This document shows, piece by piece, positions 55,401-58,700 of a stretch of DNA of 64,000 bases (positions are counted from its first letter, which is position 1; the number at the start of each line of letters is the position of its first letter). A program made the translations under genes and the position numbers. Origin of the DNA: Minisyncoccota bacterium (GTDB lineage: Bacteria > Patescibacteriota > Minisyncoccia > Phycocordibacterales > UBA12079). The stretch covers positions 27,861 through 91,860 of the forward strand of contig JAGLLX010000001.1 in the NCBI GenBank assembly GCA_023140255.1, in the 5' to 3' direction. Below the pieces are notes generated by a model. The model worked only from the letters and a program-made list of their open reading frames with translations. It ran no database searches and was not told the DNA's origin.

Positions 55401-55446
55401 GATGCGAAAATAATAGCATTAATTATTAAAATTTGCAAGAAAATAA

Positions 55447-55631
55447 GGGTAAAATAGTGTATTTATGAGATATTTGATGGAATCTGATTTAACCTCCGAG
55501 GAAGGAGTTCTGCCGTTAGAAGTAAAAAACCAAAGGTTTTTGTCAGTTTTAACGGTAGATTTTATTGTTAAATAAATAACAACAAAAGATTAAATCTAAC
55601 TCCTTATCTCATAAATACACTATTTTACCGA
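55447..55631. mobile_element. MITE-like element with perfect 25-bp terminal inverted repeats
   Basis: GGTAAAATAGTGTATTTATGAGATA ... TATCTCATAAATACACTATTTTACC; the interior carries a CCGTTAGAAG...TTTTAACGG hairpin of the CCGTTAGAG family. Confidence 0.55.
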
Positions 55632-55723
55632 TATAATTCTATGAATTCACTAATTTTTTTAAATTAACGAATTCAATAGAATGGGTAAAGTGTTTGTTCT
55701 AAACACCTTACCCAGATGAGAAG

Positions 55724-56101
55724 TTACTCTTTAGGATTAAGAGCATCCTTCACTGCTCGGGCAAGGCCGGTATTGTATTGGCCTTTGTTTACTCGAGCAG
55801 CACCTTCAAAGGTTTTCCCGTTAATGGTTACGATTGTAACATCAACTTGGCGACCTCTGAAAGCTGAATCATTTTTCCCGAATCTGTCACGGAAGTTAAC
55901 TGCGACATTTTCGAAACCTTTTTCTTTAAGAAGCCCAAAAATCTGGAGCTTCTCAATTTTCGGAGGATCAAATGATCTGTAGTCCCATGAGAATTCAACA
56001 TTCTCTAGGCAGATACAGCTTTCTTCTGCATTTGCAGGTATAGTTGAAATAACAACTAACATTACCAAAACTACCAAAAAACTACCGATTAATTTCTTCA
56101 T
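55724..56101 (-). CDS. Small secreted protein (island gene A)
   Basis: Signal peptide MKKLIGSFLVVLVMLVVISTIPANA; GGAG SD; GC-elevated. Confidence 0.45.
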   Translation of the reverse strand: MKKLIGSFLVVLVMLVVISTIPANAEESCICLENVEFSWDYRSFDPPKIEKLQIFGLLKEKGFENVAVNFRDRFGKNDSAFRGRQVDVTIVTINGKTFEGAARVNKGQYNTGLARAVKDALNPKE

Positions 56102-56217
56102 CTTCTTTCTCCTTTCTCGGAATTTCCGAGATCTAGTTTTGTTATTATAACGTTAAGTTGATAGATTACTACCGCAAAACAAATAACGATAACGATAGTT
56201 AAGTATGCGATTTGCAT
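56098..56217 (-). CDS. Unannotated 39-aa single-TM peptide (island), translationally coupled to gene A
   Basis: Hand translation MQIAYLTIVIVICFAVVIYQLNVIITKLDLGNSEKGERR; SD AAAGGAGG; stop overlaps ATG of gene A (ATGA). Confidence 0.35.
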   Translation of the reverse strand: MQIAYLTIVIVICFAVVIYQLNVIITKLDLGNSEKGERR

Positions 56218-56252
56218 GATACCTTCCTCCTTTCTCGGAATCTCCGAGATAT

Positions 56253-56423
56253 GTAAACTTTATTTAAAGAACATCTACTATGAAACTTCAAACACTTTGT
56301 TTAAAATTTCAATAATAGGCTGGAGTGAGTATTTTTCAATAAACACTCCAGCGAACTTTGAACACTAAGTTTTTTGTCTAGGACTGGGGAACTTGGAAAC
56401 CTTTTTATTATTTAAGAACAACT
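56253..56423. repeat. Promoter/leader repeat module, copy 1
   Basis: Contains hairpin CTGGAGTG...CACTCCAG; on the minus strand TTGAAA-N16-TATTAT; palindrome GAAACTTCAAACACTTTGTTTAAAATTTC. About 99% identical to copy 3. Confidence 0.6.
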
Positions 56424-56810
56424 TCAGTCATAATCATGTCTGGTAGTGAAGAGCCTTGTTGCCTCAGTTTTGTTTTTTACAGAAATTGGTATATTACCAT
56501 CAATATACCACTGAGAGTGGTTAAATCTCTCAATAAATTCTTTCGTGCCTTTTTGCGGAGCTTCACAAGAATTTGTACACTTCTTGGAACAACCTTCGCA
56601 CATTTTTGTTGCTTCAAGCTGGCTTTTGATGTAGTCGAGGACTTTCTCGGCTTTTTCGGTGAGGTTGTCTTGAATAGTAGATGGATAATATATACATATC
56701 TCTATCCCATTCCCCCAGTTTAAATCTATTTGATATACACCATCTACCGACTGAATCAATGTATTGCTACATTGATTTGGAATTGGTATTTCAAATCCTC
56801 TTGTACTCAT
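56424..56810 (-). CDS. Small cysteine-rich protein (island gene B)
   Basis: 128 aa, CEGCSKKCTNSC cluster; SD GGAGAGGAG preceded by hairpin TCCGACAATGTCGGA. Confidence 0.45.
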   Translation of the reverse strand: MSTRGFEIPIPNQCSNTLIQSVDGVYQIDLNWGNGIEICIYYPSTIQDNLTEKAEKVLDYIKSQLEATKMCEGCSKKCTNSCEAPQKGTKEFIERFNHSQWYIDGNIPISVKNKTEATRLFTTRHDYD

Positions 56811-56845
56811 CTCTTTCTCCTCTCCGACATTGTCGGAATTTAAGT

Positions 56846-57022
56846 TATTTTCCCAAAAAACTTATATATTCAAATTTATTTAAAGAACTACTATGAAACT
56901 TCAAACACTTTGTTTAAAGTTTCAATAATAGGGGTGAGATACTTGCAAACTAAACAAGTCTCACCCTTTTGAACATTAAAGCTTTTTGATACCCAGAAGC
57001 TTTGGAGAACTTGGAAACCTTT
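56846..57022. repeat. Promoter/leader repeat module, copy 2 (diverged)
   Basis: Same block order as copy 1; hairpin stem replaced by GGGTGAGA...TCTCACCC (compensatory). Confidence 0.6.
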
Positions 57023-57274
57023 TTAAAGGTTAAGACTTTCTGTAAAATTGGAGTAATCACTCCAATCACAAGAACAACAGGACCGTTTTATTTGATACCT
57101 TCGGACCTGCACCCTTTTGTAAGGATAATTTGCCACGTAATTTCTTACGTGAACAATTTCCTTTGTTAATAGTATTTGTTCCTTTCTGACCCACCCCTCA
57201 CATTCAGGGCAGATATTTTTTGAAAGAGCCTCTTCTCTTAGGGCTTTTTCCAGTCTTTCCTTTGTATCATTCAT
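57023..57274 (-). CDS. Small zinc-ribbon-like protein (island gene C)
   Basis: 83 aa; CPEC ... CCSC; start overlaps end of gene D. Confidence 0.45.
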   Translation of the reverse strand: MNDTKERLEKALREEALSKNICPECEGWVRKEQILLTKEIVHVRNYVANYPYKRVQVRRYQIKRSCCSCDWSDYSNFTESLNL

Positions 57275-57452
57275 CTTCTCCTCCTTGTTTTATATATAAC
57301 TTCATTGTCAAAATATATGTTTGCCAGATTGGACAGCAGTTTTTATCGCAATAGACTTGAGTTGAAGCAGCTGCTCCCCTGTTTCCAGTTACAGTGAGAC
57401 CACATCCATCTCCTTTTTGAAATTGACACCTTAACTCGTTATTATTACTCAT
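57267..57452 (-). CDS. Small cysteine-rich peptide (island gene D, 61 aa from MSNNN)
   Basis: Start re-set to the Met preceded by SD GAAAGGAGACGGGG; 5 Cys; the C-terminus encodes the SD for gene C. Confidence 0.4.
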   Translation of the reverse strand: MSNNNELRCQFQKGDGCGLTVTGNRGAAASTQVYCDKNCCPIWQTYILTMKLYIKQGGEDE

Positions 57453-57492
57453 TCCCCGTCTCCTTTCTCGACATCGTCGAGATCTAGTATAT

Positions 57493-57647
57493 AAAACTTT
57501 ATTTAAAGAACATCTACTATGAAACTTCAAACACTTTGTTTAAAATTTCAATAATAGGCTGGAGTGAGTATTTTTCAATAAACACTCCAGCGAACTTTGA
57601 ACACCAAGTTTTTATACTAAGGCAGAAAACTTGGAAACCTTTCTATC
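57493..57647. repeat. Promoter/leader repeat module, copy 3
   Basis: About 125 bp essentially identical to copy 1. Confidence 0.6.
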
Positions 57648-58118
57648 TTATTTCAGACAGCGGATAGACAGGCCTAATTGTTTTCCACTTTTGCCTTGGG
57701 TACCCTTACAATTCAAATCAGTAATATCTCTCCTGTTAGCCCAAGCAAGATCTTCATTTATAGAAGAAGATGACCAGAAAAAAGCAGTATAATAAAAATT
57801 GAGAAGGTTGACGTAACCGTAAGAGAAACGTACTCCTGCAAAAAATAAGTTGGGGATACTTTCCCTACCCTTTTCTCCAAGGATAGACCATTCTTCAACA
57901 GTCGGTATCTGCTTTCCAGCTTTTTTGGTTTCTCGTATTGCAGCAGAAAAGGTAAATAATTGTTGGCCTGCAGTATTATATACCCCAGTACCACCAACAT
58001 ACTCCCAAATATCCTTTTCAGGATTTTGGAGATAAACAACTCCGTTATTGTCGGTAAATTGTTCCCAACCACTAGAGTCAACCTTGAAATTTTCGTTTTC
58101 CAGCTGAAGATTACTCAT
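57648..58118 (-). CDS. FISUMP-domain protein (Fibrobacter succinogenes major paralogous domain)
   Basis: ...IPTVEEWSIL..., AGVRFSYGYVNLLNFYYTAFFWSSSS, GLSIRCLK C-terminus; SD GGGGAAGGAG preceded by hairpin CCCGATGATTTCGGG. Confidence 0.55.
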   Translation of the reverse strand: MSNLQLENENFKVDSSGWEQFTDNNGVVYLQNPEKDIWEYVGGTGVYNTAGQQLFTFSAAIRETKKAGKQIPTVEEWSILGEKGRESIPNLFFAGVRFSYGYVNLLNFYYTAFFWSSSSINEDLAWANRRDITDLNCKGTQGKSGKQLGLSIRCLK

Positions 58119-58279
58119 TTCCCTTCTCCTTCCCCGAAATCATCGGGTTAGTTTAAAATTGACAACAAAAAGAAAATTATTCCCAAAAAACTTGATATTT
58201 AATTGTAAAGAACATCTTTTTCTCTTTATTAAGAGAGTGGAAAATACGAAACTTCATATTTTTTTCTCTCTAAACAAAA

Positions 58280-58323
58280 AATTGGTCGTTTAATTCTTTC
58301 GGAAAAGAATTAAACGACCAATT
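58280..58323. terminator. 20-bp-stem hairpin bounding the island
   Basis: AATTGGTCGTTTAATTCTTT-CGGA-AAAGAATTAAACGACCAATT with T-run on the minus-strand side. Confidence 0.5.
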
Positions 58324-58354
58324 TCTGATCTTTTAAACTCCTTCCTCAAAAAGC

Positions 58355-58472
58355 TTGTCCTGTTAGAGGTAAGAAACTGAAAATTTCTGTAAGCTCTAAT
58401 AGGATTTTTTATTTATCCCGTTAGAAGTAAAAAATCGTAGATTTTCGTCAGTTCTAATGGGATTTAGTTTTT
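58355..58472. repeat. Two tandem hairpin units of the CCGTTAGAG family
   Basis: CCTGTTAGAGG...CTCTAATAGGA and CCCGTTAGAAG...TTCTAATGGGA; the second is about 80% identical to the MITE interior at 55525..55575. Confidence 0.45.
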
Positions 58473-58700
58473 AAAATGTTTCCGTCTCTTTCTTAACTGT
58501 ATTTATAGTATCATAACTAATATAATTTGTCAAGGGATTTAGTTTGCTTAAGTTATTTTTAATTTTTTAATCCCCTTTCCTTAATTACGAATACTATATC
58601 ATATTGTAAATAACTTGTCAAGCTTTGTTTAAAATAATTTAGAAATCCAACTTTCGTTATGTCGCACAATATTTTTTATGATTATGATATAATTTAAGGA

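Follow-up and report, generated by a model that had tools for sequence, protein, structure and literature searches.

What is a reading frame of only 39 codons doing directly in front of, and overlapping, the gene of a putative secreted protein? The frame lies in a window of 64 kb (the whole stretch of DNA analyzed here, 28% GC) from a Candidatus Pacebacteria (Patescibacteria) MAG, within a run of small same-strand genes, hereafter the island, that occupies the minus strand from 58200 to 55700 and encodes proteins of 156, 61 plus 83, 128, and 39 plus 125 aa. A preliminary description took the frame for an unannotated gene of a hydrophobic peptide resembling type I toxins or small bacteriocin or immunity peptides. 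Unannotated it is, since it is missing from the public gene calls made on the identical contig; what it encodes, where its parts come from, and what it tells about the island are the subject of the following sections.

A 39-codon ORF that overlaps the gene of a putative secreted protein

The ORF encodes the peptide MQIAYLTIVIVICFAVVIYQLNVIITKLDLGNSEKGERR (Table 1), and its expression signals are those first described. The strong SD, AAAGGAGG (SD1), ends 8 nt before the ATG and is largely unpaired, and the stop codon overlaps the start codon of a 125-aa gene in an ATGA junction. No terminator and no promoter block lies between the ORF and the 125-aa gene, and an intrinsic terminator-like hairpin after the latter would end the presumed bicistronic unit. 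Codons 1 to 27 form a hydrophobic core with a single predicted TM segment, in agreement with the preliminary description; the 86-nt core sequence begins with ATGCAAATCGCATACTTAACTATCG, and 12 of the best 15 residues, LTIVIVICFAVVIYQ, are I/V/L/F/C/M/A. The remainder of the peptide, residues 28 to 39, is the charged tail, with the polar/charged C-terminal cluster KLDLGNSEKGERR. The peptide has no GG motif; its N terminus has no basic region and no positive charges, and the K/R residues come after the helix, pointing to a probable N-out/C-in topology.

The 125-aa partner begins with MKKLIGSFLVVLVMLVVISTIPANA/EE, which by eye resembles a Sec signal peptide. Its family is small: two relatives were returned by a word search and four more when a profile was run exhaustively against 1.84 billion representatives, and the six cluster representatives share an invariant C-x-C motif after the signal peptide. 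The structure model is a generic alpha/beta sandwich (pLDDT 76), whose best PDB matches, to HPF- and LptE-like folds, reach a TM-score of only ~0.4. Between two organisms with 92% identical PNPase the partner is 46% identical, indicative of very fast evolution or of paralogous cassette replacement.

Four contigs of one population, assembled independently (L011 to L014), carry the ORF without any difference, meaning that the arrangement is not an assembly artifact. Two of these contigs (L013 and L014) start in the repeated promoter block, at about 56276 to 56284 of the window; such breaks in independent assemblies show that metagenome assemblies are fragmented here by the repeat.

Table 1. Coordinates of the features discussed, in the window unless a relative is named
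Feature	Position	Strand	Description
39-codon ORF	56217..56098	minus	ATG 56217-56215, TGA 56100-56098; product of 39 aa
Hydrophobic core, codons 1-27	56137..56217	minus	Single predicted TM segment; KD19 2.63
ATGA junction	56101..56098	minus	TGA of the 39-codon ORF overlaps ATG of the 125-aa ORF (56101-56099)
125-aa partner gene	55724..56101	minus	Signal peptide, conserved CxC motif, small alpha/beta domain
Module copy 1, hairpin and SD	56226..56249	minus	Hairpin TCTCGGA-GAT-TCCGAGA 56249-56233; SD AAGGAGG 56232-56226; 8 nt to ORF ATG
Module copy 2	56102..56131	minus	Hairpin TCTCGGA-AAT-TCCGAGA 56131-56115; SD AAGGAG 56114-56109; then spacer
Module hairpins, five sites	56115-56131, 56233-56249, 56823-56837, 57466-57482, 58133-58147	minus	
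Lineage-specific 118-nt segment	56132..56249	minus	Module copy 1, ATG, and hydrophobic core; absent in L061
Perfect TATAAT inside the ORF	~56152-56147	minus	12 nt before hairpin 2
Promoter/junction block	56250..56320	minus	CCTATTATTGAAATTTTAAACAAAGTGTTTGAAGTTTCATAGTAG...TTCTTTAAATAAAG; imperfect ~43-nt palindrome
Junction block copies	Window 56275-56319, 56888-56932, 57514-57558; L061 2961-3005, 3618-3662, 3911-3955; L001 2114-2157		CCTATTATTGAAATTTTAAACA.A.TGTTTGAAGTTTCATAGTAG
Terminator-like hairpin	56319..56352	minus	Closes the upstream 128-aa gene
Intrinsic terminator-like hairpin	55682..55714	minus	3' of the 125-aa gene; presumed end of the bicistronic unit
Strong TTGACA promoter beside xer	58612-58635		
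Hypervariable rpsO-xer interval	55700-58700	minus	Also seen in L001, L054, L055, L057, L061, L065
First-position leaders	Window 58118-58147; L061 2604-2637		Identical up to the start codon
156-aa gene	57648-58118	minus	
Second coupled pair	57023-57452	minus	61-aa and 83-aa ORFs
Candidate small RNA gene	58278-58625	minus	Between xer and the first island gene; no ORF
48-nt structured repeat	Window 55508-55555, 58355-58402, 58413-58460; L061 4568-4624; L055 7155-7208		
30-nt inverted repeat	55443-55472 / 55605-55634		93% complementary

A real and probably translated reading frame

Is the frame a coding sequence, or an accident of a long leader? The intrinsic evidence is mixed: the length of the frame is unremarkable, its hydrophobicity is non-random, and its codon usage is atypical. 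By chance, an ATGA overlap would be a one-in-three frame outcome. The ORF has a Kyte-Doolittle maximum over 19 residues (KD19) of 2.63, a value reached by just 1 of 102 demonstrably spurious small ORFs in the 28% GC window and in 0.1% of open shuffles of the segment itself. The hydrophobicity of the core is far beyond what composition explains, and a chance origin is very unlikely, meaning that the TM segment is selected for now or was recently. As judged from its sequence, the core is a real TM-coding sequence, at present or until recently. The codon-usage log-likelihood ratio (LLR) of the ORF is +1.2; 98% of real-gene windows score higher, and among real hydrophobic windows the value stands at the 8.9th percentile, which is low yet in range.

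Alternatively, duplication could have left the segment as nothing but an extended 5' leader, or transcription of the 125-aa gene could start from the TATAAT inside the ORF, and the frame would then be incidental and not meaningfully translated. Several observations agree with this: open frames of 26 codons occur in 10 to 13% of random sequences of the same composition, 42% of hydrophobic spurious ORFs equal or exceed the codon LLR of the ORF, gene callers passed over it, and the TATAAT is perfect and close to hairpin 2. However, no -35 element accompanies this TATAAT, and the promoter scan called no promoter there; the ATG is placed behind AAAGGAGG exactly as in the four neighboring genes, SD1 is largely unpaired, and the hydrophobicity is very unlikely to be incidental. 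We consider an untranslated frame unlikely. The reading frame is real, and the ORF is probably translated.

The charged tail is encoded by the leader of the next gene

Every transcription unit of the island follows one scheme: a terminator-like hairpin comes first, then a nearly invariant block (CCTATTATTGAAATTTTAAACAAAGTGTTTGAAGTTTCATAGTAG...TTCTTTAAATAA), and after it a GC-rich hairpin of 5 to 7 bp that leads into GGAG and the ATG. A strict scan for this hairpin and SD module (a perfect hairpin of 5 to 9 bp ending 0 to 4 nt before GGAG, then a start codon) returned exactly five sites in 64 kb, all of them in the island and each directly before an ORF. A GC-rich hairpin 5' of the SD precedes every first-in-operon gene of the island and none of the 55 non-island genes of at least 100 aa. 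The 83-aa gene, a true second gene in its operon, has no module hairpin. The 125-aa gene retains one, which would fit a gene that until recently stood first in its operon, but a promoter block of its own is missing.

The stems differ from gene to gene. In the window they are TCTCGGA/TCCGAGA, TCTCGAC/GTCGAGA, TCCGAC/GTCGGA, and CCCGA/TCGGG, and relatives have TCCTGAC, CCTGA, and GTCTGCC; the stem pairs, counted directly, remain paired, which indicates that the hairpin is conserved as a structure and not as a sequence. The predicted free energies range from -7 to -11.6 kcal/mol, and the SD stays single stranded. Stem-loops close to the 5' end are known to stabilize mRNAs, as in the ompA leader of Escherichia coli and the ermC and aprE leaders of Bacillus subtilis. 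The island hairpins resemble these leaders in being short, GC rich, near the presumed 5' end of the transcript, and directly 5' of an exposed SD, but they differ in that the hairpin is reused as a portable module, one copy of which lies inside a coding frame. The simplest reading is that the module hairpin is likely a 5'-proximal mRNA stem-loop.

Two module copies, 118 nt apart and identical at 26 of 28 positions, bracket the ORF. Copy 1 (-9.4 kcal/mol) leaves SD1 mostly unpaired and serves the ORF. Copy 2 falls within codons 29 to 39 of the ORF (its hairpin and SD part spans 56131-56109); its hairpin ends 2 nt before the SD of the 125-aa gene (SD2), whose unpaired probability is 0.68 to 0.97. 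As the native leader from which the 125-aa gene is served, copy 2 encodes the charged tail LDLGNSEKGERR. Translated in the same frame, other copies of the module give LGDSEKGGR and LDLDDVEKGD. The tail noted in the preliminary description is therefore present but is not a feature of the peptide in its own right, and a tail that the hairpin and SD of the following gene encode adds no independent evidence for a toxin. Even the ATGA overlap arises because the frame of copy 2 meets the next start codon there.

Could the overlap of a TM-coding frame with a hairpin before the next gene be regulatory? MifM carries an N-terminal TM segment, its 3' end overlaps a stem-loop that adjoins the downstream SD, and the gene that follows encodes an exported protein. 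A leader peptide of the MifM, SecM, or VemP kind would control the downstream gene through its membrane-inserting nascent chain, by remodeling the hairpin at its 3' end. The layout here is similar, with a TM segment, an ORF 3' end that overlaps the stem-loop by SD2, and the gene of an exported protein downstream, and an alternative long-range structure is predicted in which the two near-identical palindromes pair with each other (minimum free energy of -42.3 kcal/mol, versus -38.9 kcal/mol for two local hairpins). There is no sign that this long-range pairing is used. Moreover, hairpin 2 leaves SD2 free, the same hairpin precedes genes that have no upstream ORF, the downstream gene is not a component of the secretion machinery, and the peptide has neither conservation nor a recognizable arrest motif, so that control of this kind is highly improbable.

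The ORF lies in a lineage-specific segment

A close relative, L061 (PNPase 92% identical in amino acids and 88% in DNA, S15 93%, Xer 96%), allows the locus to be compared. There, too, the partner homolog is the last gene before rpsO, and its leader consists of the terminator, the promoter block, TCTCGGAAATTCCGAGA, AAGGGGAG, and ATG. The hairpin TCTCGGAAATTCCGAGA is identical to that of module copy 2 in the window, the promoter block abuts it, and the small ORF is absent. Since nothing separates the promoter block of L061 from the hairpin, SD, and partner gene, the ORF of the window lies within a lineage-specific segment of 118 nt, the ends of which are ambiguous within a direct repeat of 23 to 28 nt.

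No upstream small hydrophobic ORF is found in any of the five other contexts of the partner family (L001, L061, L065, L066, and L067). The preliminary description had looked to related genomes and homologous islands for support of a toxin- or bacteriocin-like gene. In tblastn searches against the 60 fetched loci, the peptide has no relative outside the identical strain, and the ORF is missing from all homologous islands examined, that of L061 included, which essentially refutes the proposal on its own terms. No relative was detected among 5.8 billion proteins (with the query padded to 40 aa), and the peptide had no match in plasmid records, phage records, or the PDB. Pfam, NCBIfam, and PADLOC yielded no family, and Pfam hits at an E value of up to 10 were only generic TM noise. 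Look-ups of strains with the exact 125-aa and S15 proteins retrieved only 100% identical contigs from one study. All ORF-bearing copies are thus identical and from one population, so that within-lineage variation for a test of constraint is nil. Searches with short words of the shared leader parts likewise gave chance matches alone: 35 single matches of a promoter-block 18-mer in viral contigs, with no relatives among them; two of a promoter-block 20-mer in GTDB genomes (Campylobacteraceae and Bacteroidales); and three of a hairpin and SD 21-mer in JGI metagenomes, within high-GC coding sequence. Across these collections, the ORF is private to one uncultured Pacebacteria population.

A private gene may still be a functional one. 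The peptide might be a lineage-specific small membrane protein, for example, an accessory, an anchor, or an immunity partner of the secreted 125-aa protein, made in stoichiometric amounts through the ATGA junction, with the leader-encoded residues as its cytoplasmic anchor. In favor of this are the canonical module, SD, and ATG that the ORF has in common with four called genes, the strongly non-random, TM-grade hydrophobicity, and the occurrence of small membrane proteins and ATGA-coupled pairs elsewhere in the islands (99 plus 75 aa in L061 and 61 plus 83 aa in the window). On the other side, the ORF is missing from all other partner contexts, even from a relative with the same gene order, meaning that the partner does not need the 39-aa peptide; no homolog exists in any collection searched, the codon usage is atypical, and a regulatory element dictates one third of the peptide. 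We regard such a function as a possibility of secondary rank.

Comparison with toxins, bacteriocins, and coupled small ORFs

Type I toxins are flagged by a length below 60 aa, a stretch in which at least 10 of 15 residues are I/V/L/F/C/M/A, and a polar or charged tail (Fozo et al. 2010, PMC2887945). By these criteria the peptide, with 39 aa, one TM segment (12 of 15 residues hydrophobic), and a polar/charged C terminus, looks like a toxin, and with Fst and Ldr toxins (PMC2887945; Weaver 2020, PMC7472228) it shares the single hydrophobic helix and the fate of being missed by annotation. The resemblance in size and shape drawn in the preliminary description holds, but the identification does not. 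The peptide has no homology to Fst, Ldr, Hok, TisB, or another toxin family, and its ORF is present in single copy, neither conserved nor repeated. The SD is strong and exposed instead of sequestered, the ORF is apparently embedded in an operon and coupled to another gene instead of standing alone, and the tail is a by-product of the leader of its neighbor. An antisense RNA on the plus strand, which the preliminary description had suggested as a check, was not detected: a consensus scan, which could miss atypical promoters, finds no sigma-70-like promoter on the plus strand from 55569 to 56279, and an Rfam search gives no match. A toxin of the Fst or Ldr kind, or another membrane-depolarizing peptide that some as yet undiscovered antisense RNA would restrain, is very unlikely.

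The bacteriocin or immunity reading is not supported. Class II bacteriocin precursors carry a double-glycine or Sec leader, and a dedicated ABC transporter/C39 peptidase or a recognized immunity family is encoded close by. The 39-aa peptide has no GG motif and no N-terminal basic region; the six island proteins have no match to bacteriocin, immunity, or transporter families; the fold modeled for the partner is generic; and, unlike in a bacteriocin/immunity pair, no co-occurrence was found, the partner family being without the peptide in five of five other contexts. Overall, these comparisons give no indication of a conserved toxin, bacteriocin, or immunity function of the 39-aa peptide.

The closest likeness is to translationally coupled upstream small ORFs. 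Like these, the ORF has its own SD and ATG and a stop codon that overlaps the downstream start; the 125-aa gene apparently lacks a promoter block, and a ribosome must unwind structure before reaching its start codon. The likeness is incomplete, however. The 125-aa gene has a complete, accessible SD2 and a 5'-type hairpin of its own, implying that coupling is not required for its translation, and the ORF is a recent lineage-specific addition and not a conserved feature of the operon.

Origin and proposed mechanism

How did such a frame come to precede the 125-aa gene, and what would it do there? We lean toward reading the 39-codon ORF as a translated, lineage-specific upstream ORF that is coupled to the secreted-protein gene. 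About 118 nt, comprising a second hairpin and SD module and the 27 hydrophobic codons, would have separated the promoter block from the leader native to the 125-aa gene. Unequal exchange between shared leaders or junction blocks may have produced the tandem module; homologous recombination between these shared sequences is enough to account for both the ORF swaps described below and the tandem module. Transcription of the present arrangement would start at the shared promoter block, a few bases 5' of hairpin 1. Ribosomes would be recruited by the exposed SD1 and produce a membrane peptide of 39 aa that spans the bilayer once, melting hairpin 2 as they read LDLGNSEKGERR and terminating at the UGA of AUGA, and the 125-aa gene would then be translated both by re-initiation and by direct loading at the unpaired SD2.

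The core itself either arose recently as an orphan or is what remains of the 5' end of a lost gene for a membrane or secreted protein. Three other sources were compared with shuffles and rejected: duplication of the part of the 125-aa gene that encodes the signal peptide (40 of 300 shuffles score equally well), a degenerate promoter block (190 of 300 shuffles), and a fragment of another island or fetched-locus sequence (similarity not above chance).

The rpsO-xer interval is hypervariable

The gene order pnp-NYN-rpsO-[variable]-xer-cca is conserved, and in every relative the interval between rpsO and xer holds different small ORFan genes. HicAB occupies it in L055, and one to six small secreted or membrane proteins are found elsewhere. 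In L001 and L065 the member of the partner family is the gene next to xer, and in the window and L061 it is the one next to rpsO. Leaders in first position are identical between the window and L061 up to the start codon (GGGAAGGAGAAGGGAAATG), and the ORFs behind them are unrelated (156 aa in the window versus 91 aa in L061; BLASTP E value of 7.4); the leader of the 128-aa gene of the window likewise matches the 91-aa leader of L061. Identical leaders before unrelated ORFs suggest that ORFs are exchanged precisely at the ATG, apparently behind portable leaders.

The promoter block is nearly invariant before seven genes in three species. Its junction part, CCTATTATTGAAATTTTAAACA.A.TGTTTGAAGTTTCATAGTAG, precedes genes that are mutually unrelated, forms an imperfect palindrome with G-U pairs on the sense strand, and is similar to the UP/-35 portion of the strong TTGACA promoter next to xer. 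Its role could be that of a promoter, of an operator, or of a site for recombination.

Further elements lie around the island. A 48-nt structured repeat with nested stems (CCGTTAGAAGT...ACTTCTAACGG; -12 to -14 kcal/mol) flanks both island ends, is 93 to 95% conserved in other species by blastn-short, and has no Rfam match. A 30-nt inverted repeat just upstream of the rpsO promoter encloses one copy of this element, and L061 has the inverted repeat too. A candidate small RNA gene, located between xer and the island gene closest to it, has two near-consensus promoters (TTGACA-17-TATAGT and TTGACA-17-TACTAT, both with TG), followed by structured repeats, a conserved GAGGAAGGAGTTTAAAAGATC motif, and a terminator with a 20-bp stem; its 3' part is conserved in four species, among them L001, L061, and L065. 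The second coupled pair of the window consists of a Cys-rich 61-aa ORF and an 83-aa ORF (CxxC...CxC) that overlap in ATGAATGA, and neither of them has a family match. The 156-aa protein has a subthreshold match to PF09603, the Fibrobacter succinogenes major paralogous domain (E value of 2e-4; 22 bits versus a cutoff of 33.9).

Such an interval invites comparison with integron arrays and IMEX. In all of these, short and unrelated ORFs on one strand, with imperfect palindromic repeats between them, lie divergent to the gene of a tyrosine recombinase, and one gene family takes different array positions in different species. Unlike in integrons, the genes of the island have their own promoters and terminators, and the repeats lack the R/L box order of attC. 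An integron integrase was rejected on the scores of the recombinase, which remain below the cutoffs of TIGR02249 (133.8 versus 265 bits) and NF011946 (83.7 versus 435 bits). The recombinase is a housekeeping enzyme of the XerA type (NF040815, 256.6 bits against a cutoff of 220), and Xer is at least 70% identical across Patescibacteria. We find it doubtful that the rpsO-xer interval is a dedicated cassette-exchange locus beside the only Xer of the cell, in which unrelated small ORFs would be traded at the start codon between a portable promoter, hairpin, and SD leader on one side and a common terminator/palindrome junction on the other, with the ORF as a minimal cassette or a newborn membrane-protein gene captured shortly after such a trade. 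In our preferred view, the 39-codon ORF is a translated upstream ORF that the hotspot produced as a by-product.

Biological implications

To annotate the 39-codon ORF as a toxin or bacteriocin would be an error. The locus also carries a caution for searches of small ORFs, since the pattern of a TM helix plus a charged tail can arise where a hydrophobic stub meets a purine-rich hairpin and SD leader. On its own the ORF matters little, although it may be a datable snapshot of the birth or death of a small membrane protein gene, within ~12% divergence of housekeeping DNA.

More noteworthy is the rpsO-xer hotspot. If the junction palindrome were a recombination site, the Candidate Phyla Radiation would have in this interval a system akin to integrons or IMEX. 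It brings together fast-evolving secreted and membrane mini-proteins and interchangeable expression modules in a symbiotic lineage with reduced genomes, and these mini-proteins plausibly mediate the interaction with the host.
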